NCBI GenBank assembly: GCA_963849325.1
Contig: CAWKHF010000010.1
Coordinates: forward strand, 256,001 to 320,000
Source: an uncultured Planctomycetota bacterium
Lineage (GTDB): Bacteria > Planctomycetota > Planctomycetia > Gemmatales > Gemmataceae
Direction of reading: 5' to 3'
DNA length: 64,000 nucleotides
This document shows positions 7,919 to 60,953 of the stretch, piece after piece (the first letter of the stretch is position 1; each line of letters starts with the position of its first letter). A program made the position numbers and the translations under genes. The notes under the pieces were generated by a model. That model ran no database searches and was not told where the DNA came from. It saw nothing but the letters and a program-made list of their open reading frames with translations.

Positions 7919-7961
7919 ACAGCATCAGGTGCGGAATATGGGTCTGGCTCCAGGATGCAAA

Positions 7962-9458: not shown

Positions 9459-9461
9459 GGA

Positions 9462-16763: not shown

Positions 16764-16781
16764 GGTAGTCTCGCCGAGGGT

Positions 16782-18473
16782 TCACAATAGGGACGAGCGG
16801 ACGCCGACCTTCTTGTGGGCGACGGCCAACAGGAGCGATCCCACCAACCTCCGCCGCTGGAGCCGGCGCGGAAAGGGACCGCCGAAAACGACCATCGATC
16901 GGACATCGAAATCGAATTCCTCCAGAAAGCGCCGTAACCCTCTATGGCAATACTCATGTTTCGACAGCTCCAGGTAGCGCGGCCACGGCCGGCCCAGCGT
17001 GCGGGAAGCGCGGAATACGGAGACGAGGGCGCCGCGCAGGAGGGATTGTCGATTCGGCGCTGTCAGGAGCAAGACGCCGCCTGGCTTCAGCGTCCGCGAC
17101 AGCTCCGACAAACAGCGCGAAGGGCTATCGACGTATTCCAGGACGCTCGAACACAGGATGCCGTCGAACGCTCCATCCTCGAAAGGAAGGCGCTCGATGG
17201 TCTCGACATGCTGGAAGGACGGCTCCTCCGCAAGACCTTCGGTTCGGGCCATCTGGCGAGCGATCGCGAGCATGGAGGAGGAGGCATCGACTCCGCGCAC
17301 CCGGCACCCCTTGCGGGTCAGCAACCGGGAGAACCGGCCCGTGCCGCAGCCGGCATCGAGCCAGGTTGTTCCCTCCAACTTCAGATCTTCCAGGCAGCGA
17401 GCGATCAGGCGCTCCCGACTGGCGAAGGAACCCTTCTGATACTTGCCCTCCCACTGGTTGGCGAGCGCCTGATGATGCTGGATCGCCGGATGCATGTCCG
17501 GTCCCGTCCCAGCGCCGGGTCCGACGTCGTCCGGGTTGAGGCGATGGTCCTGCCTCGGCGTGGCATCGACCTGTTGCTGCAATTCGCTGCGAGCGACGAC
17601 GGGATGCGGAGCGCCTCGCGGCGGCCAGAGGATGACAGGCAACTGGCCCGTCGTTCGATGCTCGACCCGTTTCAGATCGATCCAGTACAGGAAGGCCGCA
17701 TACAGAAGCGCGTAGCGGAAGCCGGCCAGTCCATCCAGTAAACCCAGTCGCACGAAGTAGCGGTACAGAAAATACAGCAGGGCGCGTCCGGGTAAGCGGT
17801 AATACAGCTTGCGGAGTCTCATGCGCCGCTCGACGGGTGAGCCGAACAGACGGGGCTTGATGTCTCCGGTCAGGTTGCCGCGGATGAGGCTGATCGCCTC
17901 CAGCGAGGAATAACGGTTGTGCTTGTCGAGCCAGTCGGAAATCGACTTGTAATCGTGGTGTTCGACGTAGCTTTTCAGGAAAGCGGTTCGCCCTTGCACC
18001 ACGGCATGTTCGTTGACCGGCCGCTCCTCGAAGACGGCCCGGCCGGTGCGCCAAAGCCGCAGGTCATGGTTGCTCCGGGCGCCCCCGAAGCGGAGGGGAG
18101 AGCCGAGGAAGAAGAGACGGCGGCGGAACAGAACGCCGTGAAGGTCCGGCGGCGCGGTGCGCGTCAGCCGATCCACCTCCTCCTGGAACTCCGGCGTGAC
18201 GCGCTCATCGGCGTCGAGCTTGAGGGTCCATTCGGCGCGGACGGGAAGGCGTGACAAGGCCCAGTTCCACTGCGCCGAGTAGTTCTCGAAGCGATGCTGG
18301 ACCACGCGCGCGCCGTCGGCCTCGTAGGCCAGGGCGATCTCGACGGTTCGATCGGTGCTGTAGGAATCGACGACGAAGACCTCCGTGGCCCAGCCCTTGA
18401 CCGAGTCGAGGGCGGCGGCGAGGTTCGCCTCTTCGTTGAACGTCAGGATTATGACCGCGAGCGATGGCTTCAT
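16782..18473 (-). CDS. GT2 glycosyltransferase fused to a class I SAM methyltransferase
   Basis: N-terminal IILTFNEE, VVDSYSTD, LDADE, KHNRYS; C-terminal LDAGCGTG, LPFEDGAFD, SSVLEY, LKPGG. Confidence 0.85.
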   Translation of the reverse strand: MKPSLAVIILTFNEEANLAAALDSVKGWATEVFVVDSYSTDRTVEIALAYEADGARVVQHRFENYSAQWNWALSRLPVRAEWTLKLDADERVTPEFQEEVDRLTRTAPPDLHGVLFRRRLFFLGSPLRFGGARSNHDLRLWRTGRAVFEERPVNEHAVVQGRTAFLKSYVEHHDYKSISDWLDKHNRYSSLEAISLIRGNLTGDIKPRLFGSPVERRMRLRKLYYRLPGRALLYFLYRYFVRLGLLDGLAGFRYALLYAAFLYWIDLKRVEHRTTGQLPVILWPPRGAPHPVVARSELQQQVDATPRQDHRLNPDDVGPGAGTGPDMHPAIQHHQALANQWEGKYQKGSFASRERLIARCLEDLKLEGTTWLDAGCGTGRFSRLLTRKGCRVRGVDASSSMLAIARQMARTEGLAEEPSFQHVETIERLPFEDGAFDGILCSSVLEYVDSPSRCLSELSRTLKPGGVLLLTAPNRQSLLRGALVSVFRASRTLGRPWPRYLELSKHEYCHRGLRRFLEEFDFDVRSMVVFGGPFPRRLQRRRLVGSLLLAVAHKKVGVRSSLL

Positions 18474-36986: not shown

Positions 36987-37484
36987 TCGGCGATCGCGCC
37001 TGCTTCGAGCAGAAGTCGGTCTTCGACGATTCGCTGATTGGCCCGTTCGATGGAGCGGTATCGCGCTTCGTCCTCCATCACGCGCCGGACCCGGCGGCCT
37101 TCGTTCGCCGCCAGGTTGAACTGCTGCGACCGGGCGGCGTCCTGGTGGCGGCCGACCACACGACGGACCCCGACGCCGCCCGCGCGGCGTGGCACCAGGA
37201 CATCGAGCGCGGACGGGACCACACGCACACCCGCAACCTCACGCCGGGCGAACTCGTGGACCTGCTGGCCGCTGCCGGCTTGATCGACCTGCGTTTGGTC
37301 GAGGCGCCTATTGTTCTGGACTTCGACGAGTGGTTCGACCGAGGCACCCCGGCGGAGACCAAGGAGGCCGTTCGCGCGGATGCTGTCTGGGCCGATGGCC
37401 CGCGGGTTTCAGCCGACGCCGAGAGAAAGCGGAGTGCGGATCGACGGTTGGCTGGCGCTCGTCCGAGGCGTGAAACCCGGGTGA
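36987..37484 (+). pseudogene. 5'-truncated, frameshifted second copy of the class I methyltransferase
   Basis: Starts abruptly after the palindrome at codons GDRACFEQKS, lacks the SAM-binding motif, and has an indel near 37380. Confidence 0.88.
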
Positions 37485-37623
37485 TCCCATCGAGCGGCAG
37501 ACCCCCGCGGTTACATCGCCGTTCCCGAGGAGCGAAAAAATGAGAAATCGAAGATGTTTCGCAGGGTCGAGATGTTCCTTGACGGCTGCGCAAGCTTGCG
37601 GATAGATAAGGAGAGCCGTGCTA
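36987..37623 (+). repeat. Direct duplication, copy 2
   Basis: Homologous to 32992-33629; homology ends at GAGAGCCGTGCTA in both copies. Confidence 0.92.
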
Positions 37624-37707
37624 ACATCTCGCGCGAGCGCGCGTGTTCGATAAGCGTTCCACTCGGACGGCGGCAAGCAATTTCAGAAGAGCCTCAAGAC
37701 GCACGCG

Positions 37708-38013
37708 GCCCAAACGCACCGTCACCTCATCAGCACCCTTCAGCCGCTCGTCCCAAACCACAAGCTCGAACGTGCCGTCGCTCCGTTGCAGCAGCAGTTC
37801 ATGCACGGTGGCCGGCTGCTCCGGGATGGAGTAATGGAGTTGGCCGGGCTTGGCGAGGGAACCCTTATCGGCCAGGGTCGTCGTGAGGTTGTGCAGGTAG
37901 ACGGCGGCTTTGCGCGGCGCGTAGTCCGACTTGAAAAACCCGAAGCTTTGATTGCCACCTTCGTCCGTGCGGTCGCGCAGAAGGTAGACGGCGGTGTAAC
38001 TCCAACCCCGCTT
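37708..38013 (-). pseudogene. Internal fragment of a glycoside-hydrolase-like gene
   Basis: KRGWSYTAVYLLRD..FGFFKSDYAPRKAAVYLHNLT..ELVVW reads as the C-terminal strands of a GH-A-like barrel plus a beta domain; no start codon or N-terminus. Confidence 0.55.
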
Positions 38014-38026
38014 GAGCGGACTATCC

Positions 38027-39337
38027 CTACAGAACCTTCCGTGACGGCAGCGCGCGCAGGCCGTTGGCCTCGTCGTCTCCGAGGAACTGCTCCTTGGCCG
38101 GATCCAGATGCAGCTTGCGATTGAGCAACCACGACAGGGCCGCCGCATGGCAGGCGATGTGCGAGCGGCGCATCACCTGCGAGTTGGCTGCCGGACGTCC
38201 ACGCGACTTGACGCAGTCGAAAAAGTTCCGCGCATGGGCCGACACGTCCAGTCCCTTCTCCCGCTTGCCCCCCAGATCCTTCAGCTCCTCTCGGAGCGAA
38301 GCCGGATGCACCTCGATCCCGCCGCTGTCGCCGACCTCGACCCAGCCCTCGTCTCCGACGAACCGCACCGGGCAGGTACCCAGCGATTGCACCCAGCCGG
38401 GACGCTCCTTGAACGGCGTCTTGAGAAAGTCGAGTACGAGTTTGACCCCGTTGGCGTAGCGGGCCGTCACGTTGGTGGCCGACGGCTCGTACTCCACCGG
38501 CATGGTGTCGTCCGCTTTGTTGGCCCACTGGCAGAGATCCACGGTGTGGGCGCCCCAGTCCAGGAGCCGAGCCCCCGAGTCGAAGTCCCAGTAGCCGCGC
38601 CAGCCTCCCTGTACGTATGCCTTGTTGTACGGCCGCCAGGGGGCTGGCCCCAGCCACAGATCCCAGTCCACCACGTCGCGCGGCGGTGTCGGCTCCGCCG
38701 GCAGCCAGGCCGTCTGCACCTGCGGTGTGTACACCGAAGCGTACAGCGTGTGCAGCTTGCCGAGCTTGCCGCTGTGCGCCAGCCGCACGGCCGCCTGGAA
38801 GTTCGCCACGCTGCGACGCTGTGTGCCGGCCTGGAACACGCGCTTCGTCTTGCGAATTGTGTCGTCGAGAGTCTGACACCAGGCGATGGTGAGGCCGCAG
38901 GGCTTCTCGCTGTAAATGTCCTTGCCGGCCCGCGCAGCCAGGATCGACGCCGGCGCGTGCCAGCGGTCGCCGGTGGCGATGAGTACGGCGTCGATGTCGC
39001 GCCGCGCCAGCAACTCGTGGAAGTCGCGGTAGGTCGTGCAGTCCTTGGTCTGGTAGTGGGAGTCCACGAGCTTCTTGCCCGCCTCGCGCCGGCTGGCCTG
39101 CACATCACAGACGGCCAGGCACCGCACGTCGGGCAGCTTGAGAATCGCCTGGAGGTCGTAGGTGCAGCGTGGGCCGAAGCCGATGACACCCAGCGTGATG
39201 CGCTCGGACGGGGCCGTTTTGCCGTCCCGGCCGAGCGCGGCCGCGGGCACGAACCAGGGAGCCGCCAGCGCCGCCCCCGCCGTCGCCGACCGCATCAGCA
39301 CGTCCCGCCGTGTCAGACTATCCTTCGACGTATGCAT
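38027..39337 (-). CDS. Gfo/Idh/MocA family oxidoreductase with Tat signal
   Basis: TRRDVL twin-arginine motif; VIGFG, IATGDRWH, YSEKP, GTQRRS, WDLWLGPAP, DWGAH; GGAGGA RBS. Confidence 0.93.
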   Translation of the reverse strand: MHTSKDSLTRRDVLMRSATAGAALAAPWFVPAAALGRDGKTAPSERITLGVIGFGPRCTYDLQAILKLPDVRCLAVCDVQASRREAGKKLVDSHYQTKDCTTYRDFHELLARRDIDAVLIATGDRWHAPASILAARAGKDIYSEKPCGLTIAWCQTLDDTIRKTKRVFQAGTQRRSVANFQAAVRLAHSGKLGKLHTLYASVYTPQVQTAWLPAEPTPPRDVVDWDLWLGPAPWRPYNKAYVQGGWRGYWDFDSGARLLDWGAHTVDLCQWANKADDTMPVEYEPSATNVTARYANGVKLVLDFLKTPFKERPGWVQSLGTCPVRFVGDEGWVEVGDSGGIEVHPASLREELKDLGGKREKGLDVSAHARNFFDCVKSRGRPAANSQVMRRSHIACHAAALSWLLNRKLHLDPAKEQFLGDDEANGLRALPSRKVL

Positions 39338-39502
39338 GATCGTTTCCTCCGGTCCCCCTGTGCGCTCATTCGACGTGTGGGTCGGTCGGAGCGCCACTTC
39401 TGCTTACGATAATCCCGGCTCCCCATCGCACGCAAGAGAGCAACACCCCATTCGCCCCTTCGAGCGACGTAGTTCCCATCGCTGTCACCCGACCGACGGC
39501 GA

Positions 39503-41296
39503 CTAGCGTAGCATATCCGTCAGCGCTCCGGGCGACCTTACGCCGTCCGTAACGGCGTGGTACGTCGGCGCGTCGGCGGGCAGGAAGGGAGTGAACGGCG
39601 GCATCTCCTCGCGGCCTAGGCGAAGCTCAAGCACGCCCGGCCGGTTGGTCCAGGACGAGCTGTCTTCCAGGGCTTCGTTCAACTCCTCGATGGTGCCCGC
39701 CGAGCCTACCCAGAGGCGGTGAGGGGGACCGAACCCCCGGGCGACCTTGGCCACGGAAATGGGAGAATACCGCGAGCACTCGATCCTCCCCTCGAAGTAG
39801 AGCTGTTGCCGGGTGACACACATGCCGTGCATGCCGTTGTTGAAAACGACGAAGAGAATAGGCAGCTGATGATCGACGGCGGTATGCACCTCGGCGCCGA
39901 GCATCAGGAAGGCACCATCGCCGCAGAAGACCATTGTCCGCGAGCCGCGCGGGGAGCCTATCTGCGCGCCGATGGCCCCGGCGATGGCGTAGCCCATGCC
40001 CCCCATCCCCAGGGCGATCGTGGCGCTGACGTTCGCAGGGATGCGCAGGTAGTGCAGGGCGGCCGCGGCACAGTTGCCGGCGTCGAAGAGCACGTGGCCT
40101 TTCGCGGGCAGGAACGGCTGAAGCATCTCGAGAGCCTGACTCTGTCGCAGATCTCCGGTCATGGGGACCGAGTGCGAACGGCACCTGTCCAGGGGCAGGT
40201 CGGGGGCCAACTCGGGCGTGAAGCGGGTGACGGGCACCGGGACGGGCACTCGGGGAACCACGTAGGCCTGGTCCGCTAACTGATTGAGTTGGTCGAAGAC
40301 GACTCCCGCGTCCGCCTCGATGGACAACGAGGAGCGGACGATGCGGGACACCTCGCCCATGTCGATGTTCACGACGGCCAACCGCTCCGGATGAAGGGCC
40401 TTCTGGATCGGCTGAGCCGTCATCACATTCAGGCCGGTTCCGACCGCGACGATGAGGTCCGCCTGCTCCGCCAGGAACCGATGCGCCGACGGCTCGCCGG
40501 CCACGCCCACGGTTCCCAGGTACAGAGGGTCGTCGTTGGGGAACACCCCCTTACTGGCGAGGGTCGTCGCCGTCCGCACCCCCAGGCGGCGCGCGAACGC
40601 GACGACTGCGGCGGGATTGCTGCACCGGTCCACTCCACTCCCGAGCAGCAGCACGGGTGTCTCGGCCGTGCGGATGGCGTCGAACAGTTTGGCGACCGCA
40701 TCGGCCGGCGCGTACCACAGGCCGTTCAGCTCGTTCAGACGGTCGGGCATCCAGCTGGGTCGTGGGCCGACGTCGCTGTCGAACAGGTCGCGGGGGATCA
40801 GCAGCACGGAGGGACCGGGCCGACCACTCATCGCGGCCGTGACCGCGCAGTCCAGGCACCGCCAGAATTGGCCGGGCTCCGTGATTCGCGCCTGATACTT
40901 GGAGATGGCGGCCCAGAGCCTGTCCGCGTTCACGGATCGACCGATGCCGGAAGAATCTTGAAAGGCGCCTCGACCTTCGAGCCGAGTAGGCGGTTGGCCG
41001 ACGATGGCCAGCATCGGCACCGACTCCGCGAACGCCTCGGCGACGCCCACGGCCAGGTTCATCATCCCGCCACCGGATGTGCTGCAGCAGACCCCCAGAG
41101 TGCGATGCACCCGGGCTCGGCAGTCGGCCATGAAGGCAGCGCCCACTTCGGACTTGGCGCACACGGAGCGGAAGCCCTCGCCGCCCAGCCGATGCACGGC
41201 GTCGTGCAGGTGCTCGATATTGGCGCCGCTGACACCAAACAGGTATCCCAGACCCCAGTCGCGCAAGGTCGTAACCAGAGCTTCTGCCAGTTTCAT
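39503..41296 (-). CDS. Thiamine diphosphate-dependent enzyme (acetolactate-synthase-like carboligase; NzsH/CqsB3-like by context)
   Basis: FGVSGA, SEVGAAFMAD, TSGGG, AFQD; ThDP motif GDGAF...VVFNN. Confidence 0.9.
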   Translation of the reverse strand: MKLAEALVTTLRDWGLGYLFGVSGANIEHLHDAVHRLGGEGFRSVCAKSEVGAAFMADCRARVHRTLGVCCSTSGGGMMNLAVGVAEAFAESVPMLAIVGQPPTRLEGRGAFQDSSGIGRSVNADRLWAAISKYQARITEPGQFWRCLDCAVTAAMSGRPGPSVLLIPRDLFDSDVGPRPSWMPDRLNELNGLWYAPADAVAKLFDAIRTAETPVLLLGSGVDRCSNPAAVVAFARRLGVRTATTLASKGVFPNDDPLYLGTVGVAGEPSAHRFLAEQADLIVAVGTGLNVMTAQPIQKALHPERLAVVNIDMGEVSRIVRSSLSIEADAGVVFDQLNQLADQAYVVPRVPVPVPVTRFTPELAPDLPLDRCRSHSVPMTGDLRQSQALEMLQPFLPAKGHVLFDAGNCAAAALHYLRIPANVSATIALGMGGMGYAIAGAIGAQIGSPRGSRTMVFCGDGAFLMLGAEVHTAVDHQLPILFVVFNNGMHGMCVTRQQLYFEGRIECSRYSPISVAKVARGFGPPHRLWVGSAGTIEELNEALEDSSSWTNRPGVLELRLGREEMPPFTPFLPADAPTYHAVTDGVRSPGALTDMLR

Positions 41297-41348
41297 GAGA
41301 GGGCCTTTCCATCGCTTGCCGAATGTGCCGTGTGTCTACTGCTTCCAA

Positions 41349-42350
41349 CTATGCCGGCTTCCAGTGGATGACAGCCGAGGCGGCGAAGTCTCCGGCGTGG
41401 GCAAATCCACCGAGCACGAGATGAGAGTTCGCCTTCAATTGCCCGCTGTCGATGGCCTCCTCGAGGCAGATCGGCAGGGCGGCGCCGAACAGGTTGCCGT
41501 GCCGCTCGAAGGTCGATACGTGTCTTTGCGTTGGCACCTGCAGCGCTTCGCGCCAGTTGCGCAGGAACAGGTTGTTGGGCTGGTTCGTGATGAGCGTGCC
41601 GATCTCACTGGGAGGAAGTTCGGCACGGCGGCAAGCCTCGCGGATGGCCTCCGGGACGATGCGGTTGGCACGGCTCATAATGTGGCACAGCTTCGCCTCG
41701 TTGAAATCCACGGAGGTACATGCCGTGCTCGGCTCCCACCATGCGGTGCCATCGGCACGGACGACAGCCATGTCGCCGGCATACTCGCAATAGTTCTGAT
41801 GCACGACCGCCTTGACCGGCGATTCCCCCGAGGCCACGAGATAGCCCACGCCACAGCCGTCGCCAGGGATGCGGGCCTGCTTGAGCTTGCGGGTCTGTTC
41901 ACTGCCGAACAGACGGCCGGCCGAATTCTGGACGTTGCACAACAGGGCCGTCTTCGCCCCGTGGCAGCTCATCAGCGCCTGGGCCTGGGCGATCATGTAG
42001 ACGAACGAGACGCATCCTCCATTGTGGATGTCGAGGATCCAGCTAGGGCGAATCCCCAGCGCCTTGGCGGCGTCGGCCCCGCAGCCGGTGAACGGCTGGT
42101 CCGGGGAGGTGACGTTGGTCATGAGGATATCAACGTCCTTGTGCAAGTTGAGGTTCAGGCGAGCCGCCAATTTGCGGGCGGCATGGACGATCATCACACT
42201 CGCCGTTTCATCGCGGGAAACGTGATGCCGCTGTTTCACGCCGCGAAACATGAGGGGCGCTCGCTCCGAATCGCTGTTCTGAAAGAAGGAGTTCTCGACG
42301 ATTCGTCGCGGCAGGTAACTGGCCGCGCCAACCAGGCTTACGGTCTTCAT
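41349..42350 (-). CDS. 3-oxoacyl-ACP synthase III (FabH-like) family protein
   Basis: ASYLP, DIHNGGCVSF (catalytic Cys), PGDGCG, TNQPN, HGNLFGA, GGFAHAG. ATG 42350 is translationally coupled to the upstream gene. Confidence 0.9.
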   Translation of the reverse strand: MKTVSLVGAASYLPRRIVENSFFQNSDSERAPLMFRGVKQRHHVSRDETASVMIVHAARKLAARLNLNLHKDVDILMTNVTSPDQPFTGCGADAAKALGIRPSWILDIHNGGCVSFVYMIAQAQALMSCHGAKTALLCNVQNSAGRLFGSEQTRKLKQARIPGDGCGVGYLVASGESPVKAVVHQNYCEYAGDMAVVRADGTAWWEPSTACTSVDFNEAKLCHIMSRANRIVPEAIREACRRAELPPSEIGTLITNQPNNLFLRNWREALQVPTQRHVSTFERHGNLFGAALPICLEEAIDSGQLKANSHLVLGGFAHAGDFAASAVIHWKPA

Positions 42351-42988
42351 GGCCGACCTCCCATGGTCATGGGCAGCCCGTTGGCATGGCGGTACTCGAG
42401 AATGTGCTTGAGGTTGTCTAGCTCGATCTTGTGGCCCGCGTAGAAGAACGGCCACATGTCCCCCACCCAGACCTTGCGGCCCTTGGGCGACCTGTCCGGG
42501 AACGGGTTGTTGTCGTAGTAGGGGTGCCGGCAGTTGGTCCAGAGCACGACACAGCCGGGCCGGTTGAGCACCAGCTTCGCGGGCACGACGCGCATCAGGT
42601 AGATCATCCACAGTTCGTCGCCCTGGTCCCAGGCGCAGTGGTAATCCACCGTCATCGCCTCGGGGTTGGCGACCACCCGTGTGTAGATCTTCGTGGCGCC
42701 GCCGATGCGGTCGGTGGCAACGACCATCCCGGTTTCGTCCATCGGCGTGAAATCGCGCAGGCTGTACGTCCACTCCTGCAGCGTGTACACATCGGCCAGG
42801 TACTCAAACGCCTTCTCGGGCGGGCAATCGACGTAATCCTGCAGCGAGCAATACTGGCCGTAAACCTCGTCGTGCGGGTAAACGGCGTGCGTCATTTCCA
42901 TCGTCAGATCGGTCATTTCATCCTTGCAGCAGTTCTCGATGCGACGTACGCCGGGTAGGCGGTCGATGGCAGCCGAAATGAGATTCAT
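42347..42988 (-). CDS. SRPBCC/START-fold cyclase-aromatase-like protein (NzsI/CqsB2-like by context)
   Basis: 213 aa from ATG 42988 (GGAG RBS); CPPEKAFEYLAD..LQEW, DYHCAWDQG, WMIYLMRV, C-terminal helix ELDNLKHILE typical of SRPBCC. Confidence 0.8.
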   Translation of the reverse strand: MNLISAAIDRLPGVRRIENCCKDEMTDLTMEMTHAVYPHDEVYGQYCSLQDYVDCPPEKAFEYLADVYTLQEWTYSLRDFTPMDETGMVVATDRIGGATKIYTRVVANPEAMTVDYHCAWDQGDELWMIYLMRVVPAKLVLNRPGCVVLWTNCRHPYYDNNPFPDRSPKGRKVWVGDMWPFFYAGHKIELDNLKHILEYRHANGLPMTMGGRP

Positions 42989-43096
42989 CGCGTGTACTCC
43001 TTGTTCGTAACTCGAGCAGTGAAATGGCAGACTTGAGGTCGAAGCGTGATGCCTTGCTAAAGTCTTATATTGCGTCCAATCGAAACTGTGACGGCT

Positions 43097-43248
43097 TGAG
43101 AGTCTGTTCCCGAAGCTCCCCTCTCCCCTGTACTCAGGGGAGAGGGGTTGGGGGTGAGGGGTGAGAAACCCACGAAAAACCCGCCCCCTCACCCCAACCC
43201 CTCTCCCCCGGAGTACCGGGGGAGAGGGGCTTTCGGAACAGACTCTGA
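43097..43248. mobile_element. MITE-like element (146 bp) with 11-bp terminal inverted repeats and TGA target duplication
   Basis: GAGTCTGTTCC (43100-43110) ... GGAACAGACTC (43235-43245), flanked by TGA (43097-99, 43246-48). The interior is two inverted CCCCTCACCCC.ACCCCTCTCCCC..GGGGAGAGGGG units. Confidence 0.7.
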
Positions 43249-43410
43249 TATCTCCGATCACCCCACGTAGGACTTCATCAGGCGCGGCCTCATCAAGCGT
43301 GCGCGGCGCCGGGATTGTTCCTGGCGGGCCTGTCACAAGTGATCGCGCGGGGGCTACCAGAGGGTGAAGAACATTCTCGTCATTGCGGATTTCAGACGGC
43401 GGATTGCAGA

Positions 43411-44592
43411 ATGAAGAAGCTACTCCCTGAGCATCTGCTGTCCCGGAAATCCGCCAGGCTCAAGCTGCCCTACTCGCTAACCACTGTCTGGCGACAACAG
43501 CTGCGCTATCTTCCGGCGGTGTTCGCCGTCGCCTTCAGTGCGGTCCTCAGCACCCTGCAGTGCGGACTTCTGGTGGGCATCCTCAACATCGCGGCCCGGC
43601 CGATCCACCGCAGCGATGCCCACGTCTGGCTGGCTTCTCCCGGCGTGCGTGGCCTGGGGTTTGGCCGTCCCATCCCTCTGGCCTGGAAGACCCGCCTGCT
43701 GTCGCAGCCGGAGGTAGAGCGAGTGGAAGAGTACCTGTGCGGCTTTGCCCAGTTCCAGAGGCCCGACGGCAGCACCGACCAGTGCAGCGTCGTCGGCATG
43801 AGGCTGGAGGCGGGCTCCCTGGGAGCGCTGGCGGACCTTACGCCGGAGATGCGCCAGAGCCTGACGCGGCCGGGCACGGCCGTGGTGTACGAGTCGGAAC
43901 TGCCGCTCCTGGGACTGCGGGATACGCCGGGAGAGGTCGGAGAGGTGGAGGGCCACCGTGTGGAGATTGTCGGCACCCTTCGGGGAGGCGACGGGGCAGG
44001 GTTGACTCCCGGGCTGTACTGTTCGCTGCGAACCGCTCGTGGGCTGTTGGCCTCGGTGTCGGGGCGACAGACGACTTACCTGTTGGCCCGGTGCCATGCT
44101 CCCGAACAAGGCCCTCTCCTGGCCCGAAAGCTGGAGGCGAGCTATCGAGACATGGACGCGATGACGAGCGGAGAGCTGGCCTGGCGAACCCAGTGTTACT
44201 GGCTGATCAAGACCCGGGCAGGGCTCGTCCTCGGCTTCGCCGCGGCGCTGGGCCTGATGGTCGGCGCGGTGGTCACTTCGCAGACGCTCTACGGGGCGAG
44301 CGTGGCCTCGCTCCGCGAGTACGCGGTCCTTCTCGCCCTGGGCATCCCACGTTGGCGGCTGCGGCGGCTGGTGCTCGGCCAGTCCTTCTGGGTCACTCTG
44401 GCCGGGCTCACGCTGGCCCTGCCGCTGACCGTGATCCTGGCCCACATCGCCCGCCCGATGAACGTGGAAGTGCTCCTACCGCCCTGGCTCGTGGCCGCGG
44501 TCGGAGGCCTTACGCTGGCGGTCGGCCTGCTGTCGGGGACCACCGCCCTGCGCTCGCTCCGCCAGGCTGATCCCGCCACGTTGCTGCGTTAA
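43411..44592 (+). CDS. ABC exporter permease, DevC/FtsX family (copy 1)
   Basis: RYLPAVFAVAFSA, periplasmic MacB-like domain, VVTSQTLY, REYAVLLALG, C-terminal ADPATLLR. Confidence 0.88.
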   Translation: MKKLLPEHLLSRKSARLKLPYSLTTVWRQQLRYLPAVFAVAFSAVLSTLQCGLLVGILNIAARPIHRSDAHVWLASPGVRGLGFGRPIPLAWKTRLLSQPEVERVEEYLCGFAQFQRPDGSTDQCSVVGMRLEAGSLGALADLTPEMRQSLTRPGTAVVYESELPLLGLRDTPGEVGEVEGHRVEIVGTLRGGDGAGLTPGLYCSLRTARGLLASVSGRQTTYLLARCHAPEQGPLLARKLEASYRDMDAMTSGELAWRTQCYWLIKTRAGLVLGFAAALGLMVGAVVTSQTLYGASVASLREYAVLLALGIPRWRLRRLVLGQSFWVTLAGLTLALPLTVILAHIARPMNVEVLLPPWLVAAVGGLTLAVGLLSGTTALRSLRQADPATLLR

Positions 44593-44607
44593 AGAGGAAA
44601 AAGGACC

Positions 44608-45324
44608 GTGAAGACACTAATCGCCCGTAACCTGACGCGCAGCTTCGGCAGCGGCGACACCCGCGTGGTCGCCCTGGACGATGTCTCTCTGGAGCTGCGC
44701 CCTGGGGAGTTCTCGCTGCTCATGGGGCCGTCGGGGTCGGGCAAGTCCACTCTCCTGGCCGTGCTCTCCGGGTTGGTGCCGCCCGACAGTGGCCAGGTCG
44801 TCGCCCTGGGCCAGAAGGTGTGGGCCCTGTCACCTCTCCAACGAGAGGAATTCCGCCGCCAATCGACCGGATTTATCTTTCAGGGCTACAACCTGTTCCC
44901 CGCCTTGACCGTCCGCGAGCAACTGGAGATGGTTTTGCTCTGGGCAGTCGGGGTGCCGCCCGACGAGGCCGAGCACAAGGTGGAGGCCATGCTGGACCTC
45001 CTGGGCCTGGCCGAGAAAGCCGACTGCCTCCCCGAGCAATTGTCCGGCGGCGAGAAGCAACGAGTGGCCATCGCCCGCGCCCTGATCAAGGATCCCCAAC
45101 TCCTCTTCGCCGACGAACCCACCAGCGCCCTCGACTGGCAGCGCGGCCGGCAGATCGTCGAGCTGTTGCAGGCCAGCGCCCGCGAGCGGGGGGCAGTCCT
45201 GGTCGTGGTCTCCCACGACAACCGGCTCCTCCCCTATGCCGACCGCGTGCTCCACCTCGAGGACGGCTGCCTCGATCGGCCGGAAGCGCCGGCTGGACCC
45301 GAACCCCACAAGAGGAGTCCATGA
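44608..45324 (+). CDS. ABC exporter ATP-binding protein, DevA/LolD family (copy 1)
   Basis: GPSGSGKS, LSGGEKQR, FADEPTSALD, VSHD. Confidence 0.95.
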   Translation: MKTLIARNLTRSFGSGDTRVVALDDVSLELRPGEFSLLMGPSGSGKSTLLAVLSGLVPPDSGQVVALGQKVWALSPLQREEFRRQSTGFIFQGYNLFPALTVREQLEMVLLWAVGVPPDEAEHKVEAMLDLLGLAEKADCLPEQLSGGEKQRVAIARALIKDPQLLFADEPTSALDWQRGRQIVELLQASARERGAVLVVVSHDNRLLPYADRVLHLEDGCLDRPEAPAGPEPHKRSP

Positions 45325-46373
45325 AAGTCTTCCGTCCCCGCACGTTGGTTTGGCTGCTGGCCGTGGCCGTGGTGCTGGTCGGCCTGAGCGGCGCCGCCGG
45401 CGTTTTCCGCCTGCCGCTGGCCCTGTTCGGCTGCAGGCAGCCGGATTCGGAACGGCCCGGCCTGCAAGGCGTGGAGTGCCTTGGCCGGGTCGATGTCGAG
45501 GGCGGCCTGCTCGAACTCGCTCCTGTCCGCTCGGGTCGTGTCGTGGCAGTGAGCGTCCACGAGGGAGAGGCGGTGCCTGCAGGGGCGGTGTTGCTGCGAC
45601 TGGATGAGCAGCCGGCCCAACTGCTCGTTCAGCAGGCCCGCGCGGCCCAGCAGGTGGCCGAGACCCAGGTCGCTCTTGCTGAGGAGGCGGCCAGGCTGCA
45701 CACCTTCCGGGTGGCCGGCCAGGAGGCGCTTGCCCGGGCGGCTCGGAATCGCGTGCCGGCCGCCCGCGAGCAGATGGAGCGTAAGGAACGACTCTTCGAC
45801 CAGGGACTGATCGACAAGGAGGAGAAGGCCGCCGCCCGGCAAGAGGTGAAAACGCTGGAGTCCCTGGCGGAAGCTGAGGAGAAGCGGGTGGAGGGCTTGC
45901 GCGGCGAGAACCCTTGTTTGCGCGTTCAGCAGGCCAGGGCGGAGCTGGCGCGGGCGGAGGCGCTGCTGGCGGAGGCGCGGTACGCTCTGGACCAGTGCGT
46001 GGTGAAAGCGCCCGTGGCAGGCAGTGTGCTCCGGCTGCGCTGCAGCGCCGGCGAGGTCATCTCACCGCAGCTGGCCGTAATCGTGTTCGCCCCGGCGCGG
46101 CCTCGTATCGTCCGTGTCGAGGTGGAGCAGGAGCTGATCCATCGGGTCGAGGTCAGTCAGCCCGCCGTGGTGAGGGACGAAATGCACCCGGAACGATCCT
46201 GGAACGGCCGGGTCGTCCGGATGAGCGACTGGTACTCCGACAATCCCACCATCCCCCGCCGGATGGCAAGGTTCACGGACATCCCGACGGTGCAGTGCGA
46301 GATCGCGCTGGACCCCGGACACCCGCCATTGCGCATCGGCCAGCGGATGACGGTGCTTCTTGGCGGCCCGTGA
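45321..46373 (+). CDS. HlyD/DevB-family membrane fusion protein (copy 1)
   Basis: ATGA overlap with the ATPase; N-terminal TM, lipoyl-like GRVVAVSVHEGEAV, coiled coil, KAPVAGSV, LRIGQR. Confidence 0.9.
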   Translation: MKVFRPRTLVWLLAVAVVLVGLSGAAGVFRLPLALFGCRQPDSERPGLQGVECLGRVDVEGGLLELAPVRSGRVVAVSVHEGEAVPAGAVLLRLDEQPAQLLVQQARAAQQVAETQVALAEEAARLHTFRVAGQEALARAARNRVPAAREQMERKERLFDQGLIDKEEKAAARQEVKTLESLAEAEEKRVEGLRGENPCLRVQQARAELARAEALLAEARYALDQCVVKAPVAGSVLRLRCSAGEVISPQLAVIVFAPARPRIVRVEVEQELIHRVEVSQPAVVRDEMHPERSWNGRVVRMSDWYSDNPTIPRRMARFTDIPTVQCEIALDPGHPPLRIGQRMTVLLGGP

Positions 46374-46755: not shown

Positions 46756-49503
46756 ATGAGCCACATGCTACTGAGTGTCCCGAGTCCACTGCTGTCCTCC
46801 GCAACGAGCGGATCGCCGGCGCCGGCCCCCTCCGCGGAACGAGAGCCGCGCCGTCAGGGGCAGACCGAGGGACATCCATACGCGCGCTGCGTCAACCCCT
46901 ACCTGGCCGACCTGCTGAATAAGCTGTGGCTGGACAAGCGGTTCGTGAGCGGCGAGGGCTGTGAGCTAATCGACGACACGGGCCGGCGCTACCTCGACGC
47001 CGTGGCAGCCTACGGGGCACTGCCCTTCGGCTTCAATCCTCCCGAGATCTGGCGCAGCTTGCTGGAGGTGCAGCGGAGCGGCGAGCCGAGCTTCGTGCAG
47101 CCCTCGTTGCTGGATGCGGCCGGCGAGCTGGCCGAACGCTTGCTGGCCGTGGCGCCGGCGAACCTCCGCTACGTGACGTTCGCCAACAGCGGCGCCGAAG
47201 CGGTCGAGGCCGCCGTCAAGATGTGCCGGGTCGCCACCGGGCGGCTGGGCATCCTGGCCACGAATGGCAGCTTCCACGGCAAGACCCTGGGGGCGCTGTC
47301 CGCGACCGGCAACGCCCATTACCAGGACGGCTTCGGCGCTCCGGCCGGCGATTTCCGCCACATCCCCTTCGGCGATGCGGCCGCGCTGCGCCGCGAGCTG
47401 GAGGCCCATCCGGGCTACTATGCCGCCTTCCTGGTCGAACCGATCCAGGGCGAGGGCGGCGTGATCGTGCCGCCGCCGGGCTATCTCGTCGAGGTGCGCG
47501 ACATCTGCACCCGCGCGGGCGTTCTCCTGGTGCTGGACGAGATTCAGACCGGGCTGGGACGAACCGGCGCCCTGTTCGCCTGCGAGGCCGAGGACGTTCA
47601 GCCGGATGTCCTGACGCTCGCCAAGGCCCTGGGCGGCGGACTGCTCCCGATCGGGGCCGTCCTCAGCAGCGAAAAAGCCTACTCCGAGACGTTCGCCCTC
47701 AAGCATTCCTCGACGTTCGCGGCCAACGCCCTGGCCTGCCGAGCCGGGCTGGCCGCCCTCGACCTGCTGACGCGCGACGACGGCGCCCTGGTGCGGCGCG
47801 TGGCTCGCAACGGCGCCCGTCTCCAGGAAGGCTTGCTGGCCTTGCAACGGCGCTTTCCGCAGTTGATCGCCGAGGTGCGCGGCCGGGGCTTCTTGCTCGG
47901 CCTCCGCTTCACCACCGATCGTGCTCTCTGGCCGGAGGGTCTGCTGGGCGTGGCGCTCGAACAGGAGTTCTTTACGCCCGTGTTCGCCAGCTACATGCTC
48001 AACGTGGAAGCGGTTCGCGTCGCCCCGACCCTCAACGGCAAGGCGGTCCTCCGCATCGAACCGGCGTTGACGATGTCCTGGCCGCAGTGCCAGCGGTTGC
48101 TGTCCGCGCTGGAGCGGGCGCTGACCGTGTTCGCGGCCGGAGACACGGGGCGGATTCTGGCATCGATCCTGGAAGGTCGGCCCTGCCCGCCGGCGCGGTC
48201 GATGCCGCTGCCGAAGCCGTGGCTTGAGGTCAAGCTCCGTCCAGCCGAACGCCGCTTCGCCTTCCTGATGCACCCCCTCGACTATGCCAACGCCGTCGAT
48301 TTCGATCCGTCGCTGGCCTACCTCGATGCGTCCTCTCTGGAGACGGTGGTGCGCAAGGTCGCTTCGTTCGTGGAGCCGTTCGTGGTCAGCCACGGGCGTG
48401 TGGTGTCGGCGACCGGCGAGACGATCTACGGCGAGTTCATCACCCTGCCGCGCACCGCCGAGGAGCTGACGCGGATGCGTCGCAAGGAGGCGATCGAGTA
48501 CGTCCGAGGGGCGCTGCACCTGGCGCGAGACCGCGGCGCTCAGCTCGTCGGGCTGGGGGCGTTCACCTCCGTGGTGACGCTCGGCGGCCGAGCGGTGGCG
48601 GAAGAGGGAGTGCCGATCACCACCGGCAATTCGTACACGTCGGTCGCGTCCGCCGAGGCCATCCGCAAGGCCCTGGCGCTGGTGGGTCGCGGGGAGAAGA
48701 CGCCTCCTACAGCGGCCATCATCGGAGCGACCGGCGCCATCGGCCGTACCCTGGCCCTGCTGCTCGCCGAGGACGTGGGCCGGCTCATTTTGGTGGGCAA
48801 CCCGGACTCCTCCGCCAAGTACGTCCGCGAGCGCTTGCTGGCGACGGCCGGCGATGTCGTCCGCTTTGTCAGCGCCCGGCACGCCGAGGGTTCGACCTTC
48901 CGGCCGGGCACCTTCGCCGCCCAGTTGCTCGCTCATCTGCCCGGTGGCGTGGTCGAGCAAGCCGCGATCGACGAGGTCGTCAGCCGGCTGGAACAGACCG
49001 GCTGGTTGGCGATCACGCAGGAGACGGCCGCCGCCGTGCGCCAGGCTCGGGTGGTGGTCACGGCGACCAGCGCCACCGGCACCGTCGTGCGGCCGGAAGA
49101 CCTGCGCCGGCGGGCGGTGGTTTGCGATGTCTCGCGGCCGGCCAACGTCGGCCAGGAGATCCTCGAAACGCGGCCCGACGTGCTGGTGATCGACGGCGGC
49201 GTCATCGCGGCGCCCGCCGGATCGGCCCTCAGCCAATTCGGACTGGGCGACGGCCTGATCTACGGCTGCATGGCGGAAACGATGATGCTCACCCTGGCCG
49301 GGCACCTGCGCAACACCAGCCTCGGCACCGACCTGACGCCCGAGACGCTGCACCTGTTGCGGACGCTGGCCGACAAGCATGGCTTCCACGTCGCCAAGCT
49401 ACGCAGCTTCGGCCGGCCGCTGGAAGAAGCCGACTTTCACCGCTTCCGCTCGGCGGAGGCTTCCAACAGGAGTGACAACCGTCTGTCACGAGCGGCATCC
49501 TAA
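46756..49503 (+). CDS. Class III PLP aminotransferase fused to a C-terminal acyl-ACP-reductase-like NAD(P)-binding domain
   Basis: N: NSGAEAVE, SFHGKT, EPIQGEGG, DEIQTGLGRTG, TLAKALGGG. C: FAFLMHP, GLGAFTS, TTGNSYT, GATGAIG, DVSRP, YGCMAE. Confidence 0.9.
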   Translation: MSHMLLSVPSPLLSSATSGSPAPAPSAEREPRRQGQTEGHPYARCVNPYLADLLNKLWLDKRFVSGEGCELIDDTGRRYLDAVAAYGALPFGFNPPEIWRSLLEVQRSGEPSFVQPSLLDAAGELAERLLAVAPANLRYVTFANSGAEAVEAAVKMCRVATGRLGILATNGSFHGKTLGALSATGNAHYQDGFGAPAGDFRHIPFGDAAALRRELEAHPGYYAAFLVEPIQGEGGVIVPPPGYLVEVRDICTRAGVLLVLDEIQTGLGRTGALFACEAEDVQPDVLTLAKALGGGLLPIGAVLSSEKAYSETFALKHSSTFAANALACRAGLAALDLLTRDDGALVRRVARNGARLQEGLLALQRRFPQLIAEVRGRGFLLGLRFTTDRALWPEGLLGVALEQEFFTPVFASYMLNVEAVRVAPTLNGKAVLRIEPALTMSWPQCQRLLSALERALTVFAAGDTGRILASILEGRPCPPARSMPLPKPWLEVKLRPAERRFAFLMHPLDYANAVDFDPSLAYLDASSLETVVRKVASFVEPFVVSHGRVVSATGETIYGEFITLPRTAEELTRMRRKEAIEYVRGALHLARDRGAQLVGLGAFTSVVTLGGRAVAEEGVPITTGNSYTSVASAEAIRKALALVGRGEKTPPTAAIIGATGAIGRTLALLLAEDVGRLILVGNPDSSAKYVRERLLATAGDVVRFVSARHAEGSTFRPGTFAAQLLAHLPGGVVEQAAIDEVVSRLEQTGWLAITQETAAAVRQARVVVTATSATGTVVRPEDLRRRAVVCDVSRPANVGQEILETRPDVLVIDGGVIAAPAGSALSQFGLGDGLIYGCMAETMMLTLAGHLRNTSLGTDLTPETLHLLRTLADKHGFHVAKLRSFGRPLEEADFHRFRSAEASNRSDNRLSRAAS

Positions 49504-49561: not shown

Positions 49562-50755
49562 ATGACTCTGTCTTACCAGCTCTACGAAACGATCAATCAG
49601 ATCCCCCTGGACGACTGGCGCGAGGCATCCCAGGAGGATTCGCACGGCTTCATGGACCCGAACTTCTTGCTTGCCCTGGAGAAGGGATTGGAGGGCCAGG
49701 CGCGAATCTTTCACGTCCTGATCCGCGCGGAGGACGGCCGGCCCGCCGCCTGCGCCAGCCTGTCGCTCCTGCCGCTCGATCTTTTGCTGCTGGCGGGGCC
49801 GCGCCTTCAGAAGGCGTTCGGCTGGGTCCGCAAGCTGGCCCCCAACCTGGGGAAAGTAAACGTCCTCCTGTGTGGCCTGCCCTTTTCGGCGGGGCAGAGC
49901 CACCTGGCGTTCGCGCCGGGCGCCAACCGGGCACGGGCGGTGCTGCTGCTGGACACCCTGCTGCGGCAACTGGCCCGGAGCCACCGCGCTCGGCTGATCG
50001 TCTTCAAGGAATTCGGCGACGATGCCCGCGCGTACCTGGACCCGTTGCTCGAGCACGGCTATTGCCGTGCCGCCAGCCCCGCGTCGTACGTGATGCCGAA
50101 ATCGTTCGCCAGCCTGGCCGACTACTGTGCCGCCCTCAAGCGGCACTACCGTTACAACATCCGCAGTTCCCAGCAGAAGTTCGAGCGGGCCGGCTGCCGG
50201 GCCGTCCACCTGGAGGATCCCGACGAGATCCGCCGCGTGTACACGCCAGAAGTGCATCAGCTCTATGAAGCGGTCGTCGGCAAGTCCGACCTCAAGCTCG
50301 AAGTTCTGCCGCATGCTTTCTTTCACGAGTTGGTGAATCGGCTTCCAGGCCAGGTCGCGTTGACGGTGGTCTATCGCCAGGAGCGCGCGATCGCTATCGC
50401 CTGGGGCCTCTCGGCCGATCCCGAGTATCACGGCCTGTTTTGCGGGATCGACTACGAACACAACGCCGAGTGCGATCTCTATTTCAACGTCGTGTACCAG
50501 CATCTCGACTACGCTTTCCGGCGCGGCAGCCGGCTCATCACCCTGGGCCAGACCGCGGAAAGCTTCAAGACCCGCCTCGGCTGCGTGGGCAAGGCACGCC
50601 ACGTCTATGCTCGCGGGGCAGGCCCGCTCCTGTCCCGGGTGTTGCGGCGCAGCGCCGGCTTCCTCTTCCCCGATCGACCGATCGCGCCCGCGCACGACGT
50701 GTTCAAGGCGATCGAGCCGGCCCGTCCGCGCAAGCAGGCGCTGCCCGTCAGTTGA
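49562..50755 (+). CDS. Large GNAT-fold acyltransferase (FemAB / BioF2-like acetyltransferase type)
   Basis: 397 aa; IVFKEF, SFASLADYCAALKRHYRYNIR, GIDY, LYFN, LGQTAESFKTRLG; AAGGAG RBS. Confidence 0.82.
   Translation: MTLSYQLYETINQIPLDDWREASQEDSHGFMDPNFLLALEKGLEGQARIFHVLIRAEDGRPAACASLSLLPLDLLLLAGPRLQKAFGWVRKLAPNLGKVNVLLCGLPFSAGQSHLAFAPGANRARAVLLLDTLLRQLARSHRARLIVFKEFGDDARAYLDPLLEHGYCRAASPASYVMPKSFASLADYCAALKRHYRYNIRSSQQKFERAGCRAVHLEDPDEIRRVYTPEVHQLYEAVVGKSDLKLEVLPHAFFHELVNRLPGQVALTVVYRQERAIAIAWGLSADPEYHGLFCGIDYEHNAECDLYFNVVYQHLDYAFRRGSRLITLGQTAESFKTRLGCVGKARHVYARGAGPLLSRVLRRSAGFLFPDRPIAPAHDVFKAIEPARPRKQALPVS

Positions 50756-59510: not shown

Positions 59511-60953
<1,443 letters not shown>

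Follow-up and report, generated by a model that had tools for sequence, protein, structure and literature searches.

Carquinostatin, neocarazostatin and the carbazomycins are bacterial carbazoles that act as radical scavengers and antibiotics. To our knowledge, bacterial carbazoles have so far come from actinomycetes only, and few natural products are known from Planctomycetota. In scytonemin biosynthesis, a ThDP-dependent acyloin synthase (ScyA) acts on indole-3-pyruvate and is followed by a cyclase (ScyC); we know of no KAS III step in that pathway.

The carquinostatin (CQS) and neocarazostatin (NZS) systems of Streptomyces combine a KAS III-like enzyme (CqsB1, NzsJ), a cyclase (CqsB2, NzsI) and a ThDP enzyme (CqsB3, NzsH). 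We represented them by the CqsB2 structure (PDB 6ipv) and by locus L081 of Embleya sp. NBC_00896, whose cyclase matches CqsB2 with 459.8 bits. Like the NZS and CQS clusters, L081 also carries an ACP and a phytoene-synthase-like (SQS_PSY) gene. The carbazomycin (cbz: CbzB/D/E/F) and chlocarbazomycin (chlCz1/2/3/5) clusters are small and share the same core without prenylation, and simple acyl donors such as acetyl-ACP have been proposed for them (PMC7466098, PMC10100901, PMC11610953). According to Table 1 of PMC11610953, the indole-3-pyruvate maker in NZS, CQS and cbz is a class I/II aminotransferase. Triads outside actinomycetes were already noted in section 4 of a 2020 review (PMC7466098). 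Here we compare these systems with a triad in a 64 kb stretch of planctomycete DNA, referred to as the window.

A three-gene locus and its enzymes

The locus consists of three genes on the minus strand. Their common orientation, their sizes and an ATGA overlap had been given in a first-pass annotation and were borne out by the ORF coordinates. The CqsB2-like SRPBCC cyclase (213 aa) occupies 42347..42988, stop codon included, with its ATG at 42988 and its TGA at 42347. A Shine-Dalgarno-like AAGGAG, read off the sequence at 42997..43002 on the same strand, stands 8 nt ahead of this ATG. The KAS III-like condensing enzyme (333 aa) is encoded at 41349..42350, and its ATG at 42350 overlaps the cyclase TGA in the ATGA at 42350-42347. 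The third gene (39503..41296) begins 52 nt behind the KAS stop and codes for a putative CqsB3/NzsH-type, ThDP-dependent acyloin synthase of 597 aa. None of the three reading frames is broken or shortened. GC3 is 0.83 in the ThDP gene, similar to neighboring genes, and 0.69 in the KAS gene when measured on the longest ORF, with an upstream extension counted in. The annotation's planctomycete host is consistent with a GC content of 61-69% in the window and a DUF1501 gene at 59511-60953 (Pfam), a family typical of Planctomycetota; the five nearest loci also all belong to this phylum.

The cyclase aligned with CqsB2 (6ipv) by phmmer at an E value of 6.4e-54, residues 18-204 against 31-224. The NzsI/CqsB2-like reading, which a lack of significant similarity would have overturned, therefore stands. 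Its identity to CQS/NZS-type cyclases is 45-50%, with 50% for the cyclase of the carquinostatin-type locus L081, compared with 141 of 207 positions identical to CqsB2 for the cbz/chlocarbazomycin cyclase (PMC11610953, Table 1). In Pfam the only match was a weak one to Polyketide_cyc2, under the cutoff (E 0.0055). The AlphaFold model is of moderate quality (pLDDT 68, with one of five models above 41); the monomer shows the helix-grip core, and residues 17-42 fall below 50. In CqsB2, a helix-grip protein, the N-terminal arm caps the pocket of the partner in the dimer. When this moderate model was compared with solved structures by Foldseek, 6ipv ranked first (E 4.4e-19, TM 0.65), in agreement with the annotation, and the next hits, at about 1e-6, were Bet v1-like proteins, among them thebaine synthase and the PYR/PYL receptors. 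CqsB2 resembles type II polyketide aromatase/cyclases (PMC7466098). Such enzymes (TcmN, WhiE-ORFVI) and Bet v1/SRPBCC proteins share the helix-grip fold modelled for the window cyclase but are only 10-18% identical to it.

Proposed catalytic residues of CqsB2 are Tyr144, Tyr172, His206 and Glu209, together with Glu105 for enolate stabilisation (PMC7466098). Counted by hand along the phmmer alignment to 6ipv, the first four correspond to Y130, Y158, H186 and E189 of the window cyclase, so that four of the five are kept. The fifth is Asp93, still acidic but with a side chain one carbon shorter. D93, Y130, Y158, H186 and E189 were the same in all 18 homologues aligned, and both tyrosines were present in all 81 rows of a wider alignment; across cyclase representatives at 50% identity, the Asp93 position varies between Asp and Glu. 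A quick tree, which has several long branches, joined the window with every sampled locus in a clade (98*) that excludes P0126, the representative nearest CqsB2 (225.7 bits). In this tree the window cyclase lies in a sister clade of P0126 and not in one clade with the characterised CqsB2-type enzymes.

The KAS matched Pfam ACP_syn_III_C (4e-17) and ACP_syn_III (3e-4), and its best solved relative is the FabH 1ub7 (E 3e-20). It has the KAS III fold, with Cys113 aligned to the active-site Cys of FabH. Compared with the Cys-His-Asn triad of FabH and of the L081 KAS, however, Asn256 occupies the position of FabH His244, whereas the third residue is kept as Asn286. C113, N256 and N286 were invariant in 21 of 21 KAS sequences. 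The window motif TNQPN reads THQPN in L081, with His kept, and T-N-Q was found in 80 of 80 rows of the clade. Identity to the L081 KAS is 28% (130.7 bits); the highest-scoring solved FabH reached 76 bits, and the NCBIfam FabH model scored 114 against a cutoff of 249. Judged by these bit scores, the enzyme is nearer to the CqsB1-type proxy than to any solved FabH, yet distant from it; across its clade, identity to this proxy is 22-28%. The annotation's NzsJ-like KAS III is thus right as to enzyme class, but the sequence departs from that type, both in overall identity to the proxy and in having Asn for the catalytic His. The acyl donor, and even the reaction, may differ from those of the CqsB1 type.

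Pfam assigned the domains TPP_enzyme_N, M and C to the ThDP enzyme, each with an E value near 1e-27. With the CqsB3-type enzyme of L081 it shares 54% identity and scores 649 bits; the best AHAS reaches 152 bits. In a tree that held no AHAS sequence, the window and L081 enzymes lay on one side of a 100* split. The grouping apart from true acetolactate synthases, on which the annotation had made its reading depend, was found in these comparisons. The catalytic Glu, in AKSEVGAAF, was present in all 68 rows listed of 75, and the GDG of the ThDP motif GDG...NN in 75 of 75; the motifs were also seen in the alignment with BbmA. BbmA (PDB 8x3x, 208 bits) and CsmA (8x3z, 150 bits) are the best solved relatives but reach about one third of the score of the CqsB3-type proxy; we found nothing relevant in the literature on the function of either. 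A biosynthetic acetolactate synthase (IlvB with IlvN) was considered and rejected. The NCBIfam AHAS equivalog gave 234 bits against a cutoff of 538, and Pfam scans of 52 window ORFs (15 + 37) gave no ACT-type small subunit, as the annotation had stated for ilvN/ilvH near the gene.

Distribution and surroundings of the triad

Species-level genomes encode close relatives of the cyclase at no fewer than 596 places. All three genes were adjacent in 78 of the 80 loci that we examined, which span five phyla; the remaining two are truncated where their contigs end. Because of this adjacency in related loci, the triad arrangement exceeds chance. A 4-nt overlap of cyclase stop and KAS start was seen in 45 of 79 loci, an approximate count with starts chosen by alignment. 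The module is therefore not as rare as the annotation had implied, and five further Planctomycetota genomes carry the triad. These five nearest loci are all of the same type as the window, and a locus from Anammoxibacter is of the other type. We regard the module, here called clade W, as a sister version of the core shared by neocarazostatin and carquinostatin, distinct, widespread and with a KAS lineage of its own. It occurs in Planctomycetota, Myxococcota, Pseudomonadota, Bdellovibrionota, many Mycobacterium, Nocardia and Streptomyces, with cyclases 53-84% identical across phyla. Natural fusions of KAS III and cyclase were found in six of the 11 long or odd-length forms scanned (P0128, P0211, P0218, P0260 and two fragments). 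Our literature search found no product for any clade W module.

Like the CQS/NZS systems, the window has the three enzyme classes side by side, and the cyclase gene always adjoins the KAS gene. The order is cyclase-KAS-ThDP in the window, against KAS-cyclase-ThDP-prenyltransferase in L081. Clade W loci of Actinomycetota (Streptomyces, Mycobacterium, Nocardia; L013-L079) have the order ThDP-cyclase-KAS, and usually a class I/II aminotransferase gene comes next. Such a gene accompanies the triad in 48 of the 80 loci, in 46 of them right behind the KAS gene and in the same orientation. The actinobacterial cyclases and KAS enzymes are 59-66% and 41-47% identical to those of the window, and they share with it TNQPN, Asp93 and the conserved cyclase-KAS junction. 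In contrast, their ThDP enzyme belongs to another lineage (30-41% identity, on the opposite side of the 100* split). Their regulators differ by lineage: they are of the AraC/DJ-1 kind in Streptomyces and comprise an ECF sigma factor with anti-sigma factor and MarR in Mycobacterium and Nocardia.

Compared with CQS/NZS clusters, the window lacks several accessory genes. No phytoene-synthase-like prenyltransferase, free-standing ACP or second (NzsF-type) KAS III was found by Pfam in the 52 ORFs, and no class I/II (NzsD-type) aminotransferase or P450 homologue by tblastn across the whole 64 kb. This agrees with the annotation, which had seen no prenyltransferase or aromatic aminotransferase next to the triad. 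The sole aminotransferase in the window is of class III (915 aa, 46756-49503, opposite strand). By these scans, a complete prenylated carbazole cluster of the NZS/CQS type is not present around the triad. The cbz and chlocarbazomycin clusters, too, differ from the window in carrying an aminotransferase, a methyltransferase and redox tailoring genes. Among the five closest Planctomycetota loci, Pfam scans of the flanks likewise gave no aminotransferase, ACP, second KAS III, prenyltransferase or P450 in four; L004 has a P450 and an O-methyltransferase there. In L001, L002 and L005, which are among these five, an MMPL transporter gene comes directly after the triad; it is absent from the whole window. 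Seven window neighbors were tested, and none was common to any related locus. A scan limited to sigma-70-like promoters found none.

The core carbazole chemistry would thus have a sister version far more widespread than the characterised clusters, underexplored phyla included. The window by itself is a moderate finding, a further host and a further variant and not another kind of pathway; novelty would rest only on a product from Planctomycetota. With only three genes in 3.5 kb, the module should be easy to express and test.

Proposed product and competing readings

We think it rather likely that the triad is one translationally coupled operon, most probably making a carbazole-type compound, a cyclised indole derived from an acyloin. 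This is close to the earlier reading of a carbazole or related acyloin-derived ring, which came through the similarity searches and the checks on the cyclase and the ThDP enzyme. The following steps are proposed by homology, with the published pathway and catalytic residues as given in PMC7466098. The ThDP enzyme would decarboxylate pyruvate, and the hydroxyethyl-ThDP carbanion would attack an arylpyruvate, in all likelihood indole-3-pyruvate, at its keto group. The KAS would load its Cys113 with an acyl group that primary metabolism supplies as acyl-ACP or acyl-CoA, and would condense it with the beta-keto acid during loss of CO2, Asn256 and Asn286 presumably standing in for the His/Asn pair of FabH. 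The cyclase would then take the unstable product from the KAS and, with Tyr130, Tyr158, His186, Glu189 and Asp93, carry out a cofactor-free closure and aromatisation of the new ring. The predicted outcome is a catechol or ortho-quinone. Since dedicated aminotransferase, ACP and tailoring genes are missing from the window, the arylpyruvate and the acyl donor would come from general metabolism or from elsewhere in the genome.

This supply bears on the substrate. Phenylpyruvate and 4-hydroxyphenylpyruvate are ordinary intermediates, unlike indole-3-pyruvate, which is not a biosynthetic intermediate. The same kind of module might use one of the former, or another type of acyl donor, and form a non-carbazole ring (naphthalene-like, cyclopentenone-like or an ester/lactone shunt-type product). 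The lack of a dedicated aminotransferase in the window and the five nearest Planctomycetota loci would fit, as would the distance of the clade W KAS from the CqsB1-type proxy with His replaced by Asn in every row, and the separate cyclase clade. The window cyclase also matches, weakly, the NCBIfam model of ScyC, which cyclises a different indole/phenol acyloin (E 2.6e-5, 23.7 bits over 88 residues, far under the cutoff of 400). We nevertheless hold such chemistry to be possible but on the unlikely side. The enzyme that chooses the arylpyruvate is the ThDP enzyme, and it shares 54% identity and a side of the split with the CqsB3 type. The proposed catalytic positions of CqsB2 are kept in the cyclase, with Asp93 in place of Glu105, and actinomycete clade W loci have the same aminotransferase class as carbazole clusters. 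On chemical grounds, ring closure wants a nucleophilic aromatic carbon, for which indole C2 is better than a benzene ring.

Loss of function is quite improbable, although several observations would suit an inactive remnant of a larger cluster that has lost its tailoring, carrier and export genes and is no longer expressed or productive: the MMPL gene of three near relatives is missing, none of the seven window neighbors tested is shared with related loci, and no promoter was detected among sigma-70-like ones, the only type scanned. The frames are intact and full length with their catalytic residues, the ribosome-binding site and coupled start are retained, and GC3 of the ThDP gene is like that of its neighbors, the KAS value including the upstream extension. 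Even harder to credit is a chance neighborhood of primary metabolism genes, in which a FabH and the large subunit of an acetolactate synthase would lie beside an SRPBCC protein that binds lipids and has nothing to do with them. The Pfam and NCBIfam superfamilies are indeed AHAS-like and FabH-like, but all NCBIfam AHAS and FabH models score far under their cutoffs, no small subunit was found among the 52 window ORFs scanned, and the KAS lacks the catalytic His of FabH. The cyclase matches CqsB2 at 6e-54, and the triad is kept in nearly all loci across five phyla while none of the seven window neighbors is conserved.

Returning to the indole product of a coupled operon, a broader proposal is more doubtful. 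The orphan clade W module, with its Cys-Asn-Asn KAS, might make one conserved, undescribed, lipophilic and redox-active indole quinone or catechol from tryptophan- and fatty-acid-derived precursors in all these phyla. The degree of sequence constraint on the cyclase across phyla would speak for a single conserved product. Its role might be physiological, as an antioxidant or signal, and not that of a strain-specific antibiotic. In planctomycetes, the compound might be exported through the MMPL transporter whose gene comes after the triad in the nearest relatives.

The gene triad and its cyclase

The three genes lie on the minus strand of the window. The SRPBCC cyclase gene (213 aa) runs from an ATG at 42988 to a TGA at 42347, with AAGGAG 8 nt upstream of its start. 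The KAS III-like gene (333 aa, 42350 to 41349) begins with an ATG that overlaps the cyclase stop as ATGA, and the ThDP enzyme gene (597 aa, 41296 to 39503) starts 52 nt past the KAS stop. The positions, sizes, common orientation and overlap given by the first-pass annotation thus agreed with our reading of the sequence. In Pfam, the KAS showed ACP_syn_III domains and the ThDP enzyme three TPP-enzyme domains; the cyclase gave a weak, below-cutoff match to Polyketide_cyc2 (E 0.0055).

When compared with solved structures, the cyclase matched one family only. This was CqsB2 (6ipv), which acts as carbazole synthase in the carquinostatin pathway (E 6.4e-54, residues 18–204). The next matches were at E 0.02. 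The similarity to NzsI/CqsB2 that had been claimed for the SRPBCC protein was therefore borne out. An AlphaFold model built with 18 homologues was of moderate quality (pLDDT 68, with residues 17–42 poor). Foldseek with this model, the structural comparison that the annotation had proposed, again placed 6ipv at the top (E 4.4e-19, 45% identity), followed by generic Bet v1-like proteins at about 1e-6.

In a 2020 review, the residues proposed to take part in catalysis by CqsB2 are Glu105, Tyr144, Tyr172, His206 and Glu209 (PMC7466098). By our count along the alignment, their counterparts in the window cyclase are, in the same order, Asp93, Tyr130, Tyr158, His186 and Glu189, none of which varies among the 18 close homologues compared. 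Among more distant representatives, the Asp93 position is Asp or Glu by turns, and the other four residues are kept in the nearer clusters.

Comparison with a carquinostatin-type locus

In place of NzsH/I/J and CqsB1-3, a stand-in locus was sought among stored sequences. The 50%-identity protein representative nearest to CqsB2 was P0126 (225.7 bits). Its tblastn search against plasmid records led to a replicon of Embleya sp. NBC_00896, whose cyclase matches CqsB2 with 459.8 bits (E 1.8e-137) across 222 residues. At this locus a KAS III-like gene precedes the cyclase and ThDP enzyme genes, and after these come a squalene/phytoene-synthase-like gene, a single unassigned gene and an ACP gene. A phytoene-synthase-like prenyltransferase and a free-standing ACP are described in the review excerpt as hallmarks of the NZS and CQS clusters (PMC7466098), so we took the Embleya locus as carquinostatin-type. 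The cluster (7702–13761) is unannotated. The linear 3.1-Mb replicon that carries it is recorded as a plasmid and has an IS605-type transposase gene at 15910–17103.

The window cyclase is 50% identical to its Embleya counterpart (phmmer 193.7 bits, against 186.2 for CqsB2, the best solved relative). For the ThDP enzyme the identity is 54%, with 649.1 bits against 208 for BbmA and 152 for the best AHAS among solved structures. The KAS is 28% identical (130.7 bits, against 76 for the best solved FabH).

Judged by sequence, the ThDP enzyme is CqsB3-like and not an acetolactate synthase. A grouping with true acetolactate synthases, named earlier as the outcome that would speak against a carbazole reading, is contradicted by the gap between the Embleya and AHAS scores. 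None of the NCBIfam AHAS models reached its cutoff, and the biosynthetic large-subunit equivalog gave 234 bits where 538 are required. Pfam scans of 52 of the window's ORFs detected no acetolactate-synthase small subunit, in agreement with the annotation, which had seen no ilvN/ilvH nearby. The enzyme has both the catalytic Glu and the GDG motif. A quick tree of 26 ThDP enzymes, built with no AHAS outgroup, split into two groups with support of 100. One holds the enzymes of the window, other Planctomycetota, Myxococcota, Pseudomonadota and Embleya; the other holds those from actinomycete-type loci. Our literature search found no relevant paper on what BbmA or CsmA, the best solved relatives (PDB 8x3x, 8x3z), is.

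The KAS gave a different picture. When it was aligned with five solved FabH enzymes, the active-site Cys (Cys113) and Asn (Asn286) were in place, and the position of FabH His244 was occupied by Asn256 in the motif TNQPN. T-N-Q is kept in 80 of 80 clade rows, and C113, N256 and N286 are invariant in all 21 aligned sequences. In contrast, the CqsB1-type KAS of the Embleya locus carries THQPN and is only 22–28% identical to any clade member. From the altered Cys/Asn/Asn residues and this low identity, the condensing enzyme of the module is assigned to a separate KAS III lineage, set apart from the CqsB1 type through the Embleya proxy.

A second KAS copy of the window's type was seen in the Antrihabitans sp. 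locus (L074, 12751–13779), about 1 kb downstream of the triad and 55% identical to Mycobacterium and Streptomyces members. The other additional ORFs of the KAS cluster in the loci were 14 short ones (98–152 aa), none of which matched the KAS set in blastp.

Distribution, gene order and coupling

The cyclase family is compact: of 1.84 billion representatives, 160 belong to it at E≤1e-3, a number that falls to 28 at E≤1e-30. At 90% identity, 1159 of 1185 candidate clusters were homologues at E≤1e-5, and the best 120 were 66–87% identical. In contigs from one genome per species, at least 599 stretches fit our search patterns and at least 596 encode a cyclase relative. These places are mostly of the window's own type, since the second search pattern misfits the printed CqsB2 sequence. 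We examined the best 80 of the at least 596.

The triad is adjacent in 78 of the 80 loci; the other two (L032 and L061) are truncated by contig ends. The window's order, cyclase-KAS-ThDP, was found in 15 complete loci and L032, from Planctomycetota (L001–L005), Myxococcota, Pseudomonadota and a Legionella. The order ThDP-cyclase-KAS was found in 63 complete loci and L061, comprising 62 Actinomycetota, one Bacteriovoracaceae MAG and one Candidatus Anammoxibacter MAG. The cyclase tree divided along the same line, with SH-aLRT support for the split at a modest 86. The window cyclase branches with those of the five Planctomycetota (support 84, and 94 in a wider-sampled tree). In the wider tree, a quick one with several long branches, the cyclases of the window and of every sampled locus group in one clade (support 98), with P0126 and the other representatives outside. 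Streptomyces and Mycobacterium cyclases of this clade score 170 and 167 bits against CqsB2, no nearer than the 186 of the window cyclase. The ThDP enzymes of the actinomycete loci (L013–L079) are of the other lineage, 30–41% identical to that of the window.

The KAS gene always lies directly downstream of the cyclase gene, with the ThDP gene on either side. With starts chosen by alignment, a 4-nt cyclase–KAS overlap was counted in 45 of 79 loci, and the spacing of the two genes is between −16 and +17 nt in 73 of 79. Natural fusions of a KAS III with a C-terminal cyclase also occur (P0128, P0211, P0218, P0260 and two fragments, making 6 of the 11 scanned representatives of long or odd length). 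P0260 has an SDR (short-chain dehydrogenase) domain as well. The fused KAS domains belong to other lineages; that of P0128 shares 50% identity with the Embleya type and 26% with the window KAS. According to the review excerpt, CqsB1 and CqsB2 must act in concert because their shared intermediate is unstable (PMC7466098). The coupling and the fusions fit such concerted action. In P0161, the end of a ThDP enzyme is joined to the start of a cyclase; this may reflect a fusion or read-through during gene calling.

Gene neighbourhood and proposed pathway

Companion genes differ between lineages. A class I/II aminotransferase gene occurs in 48 of 80 loci, mostly directly past the KAS, in nearly all cases in actinomycetes, plus two loci that belong to a single Myxococcota MAG. 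P450 genes occur in 22 of 80 loci at various places. AraC/DJ-1-type regulators are found in 29 of 80 (Streptomyces), and loci from Mycobacterium and Nocardia have MarR as well as ECF sigma factors paired with a zf-HC2 anti-sigma. These lineage-specific regulators beside the actinomycete triads suggest stress-linked regulation. Of the five nearest Planctomycetota loci, three have an MMPL-family transporter gene immediately after the ThDP gene (L001, 13469–15763; L002, 13541–15910; L005, 3757–6225). These transporter genes are orthologous, with mutual identity of 63–69%. The ThDP gene is followed by an O-methyltransferase and a P450 gene in L004, and by an ECF sigma gene in L003.

The whole window has no MMPL homologue, and tblastn across it found no class I/II aminotransferase or P450. 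Pfam scans of 52 of its ORFs gave no prenyltransferase or ACP. The annotation's remark that no prenyltransferase or aromatic aminotransferase is adjacent thus held. Seven window neighbours were considered as cluster parts: the GFO/IDH/MocA oxidoreductase (39397..38027), the FtsX/ABC/HlyD efflux genes (43315–46373), a class III aminotransferase (46756–49503), a FemAB-like GNAT and a MacB-like permease. All were rejected, as none had a homologue beside the triad in any of the 80 loci (E≤1e-10). ABC matches in 15 loci were generic, 27–43% identical and at varied positions.

Carbazole-core logic is the best-supported reading of the triad, with every step drawn from homology. The ThDP enzyme would join pyruvate and indole-3-pyruvate by acyloin condensation, the KAS would carry out a decarboxylative acylation, and the cyclase would close the ring without a cofactor. 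The main doubt on this reading comes from the divergence of the KAS and from the lack of aminotransferase, ACP and tailoring genes, and it extends to the arylpyruvate, the acyl donor and hence the product. Among the papers listed by our searches, with planctomycete matches judged by titles and abstract starts, none dealt with a product of this clade or a planctomycete carbazole. The review excerpt already places NzsJ/I/H-type triads in Streptomyces cattleya, Sorangium cellulosum and Scytonema (PMC7466098). Planctomycetota would thus be a new host phylum for carbazole-type chemistry, the pathway kind itself being known.

The remainder of the window holds an ECF sigma gene, efflux genes, a DUF1501 gene and a large polysaccharide biosynthesis and export region (~2781–32225). 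This region encodes Wzy-like, Poly_export and UDP-GlcNAc 2-epimerase proteins, several glycosyltransferases, a heparinase II/III-like protein, a polysaccharide deacetylase, a UDP-glucose dehydrogenase and a chain-length-regulator-like ATPase. The 915-aa protein encoded at 46756–49503 (plus strand) has its class III aminotransferase domain at the N terminus. In NCBIfam it comes closest to PigE, from prodigiosin MAP biosynthesis (545 bits, cutoff 850); its ~450 C-terminal residues have no family match. Its gene, whose adjacency to the triad is not conserved in other loci, is followed by the FemAB-like GNAT gene (49562–50755, plus strand) and flanked by MacB/FtsX/HlyD efflux genes.

A regulatory-element scan found no sigma-70-like promoter, and its sole terminator-like site lies inside the GFO gene. 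An Rfam scan of 37000–44000 found no riboswitch. The intergenic stretch that separates the triad from the divergently oriented FtsX gene contains a long GC-rich composite palindrome (43099–43246), which in Rfam matched only sub-threshold microRNA-hairpin models. Its RNA fold has an energy of −118.8 kcal/mol, with a z of −10 relative to shuffled sequences. Within the window the 17-nt core of the palindrome is confined to the two arms, and it occurs in 0 of 81 loci. The palindrome may represent a bidirectional terminator, a hairpin with a regulatory role or an element of the MITE/REP type.
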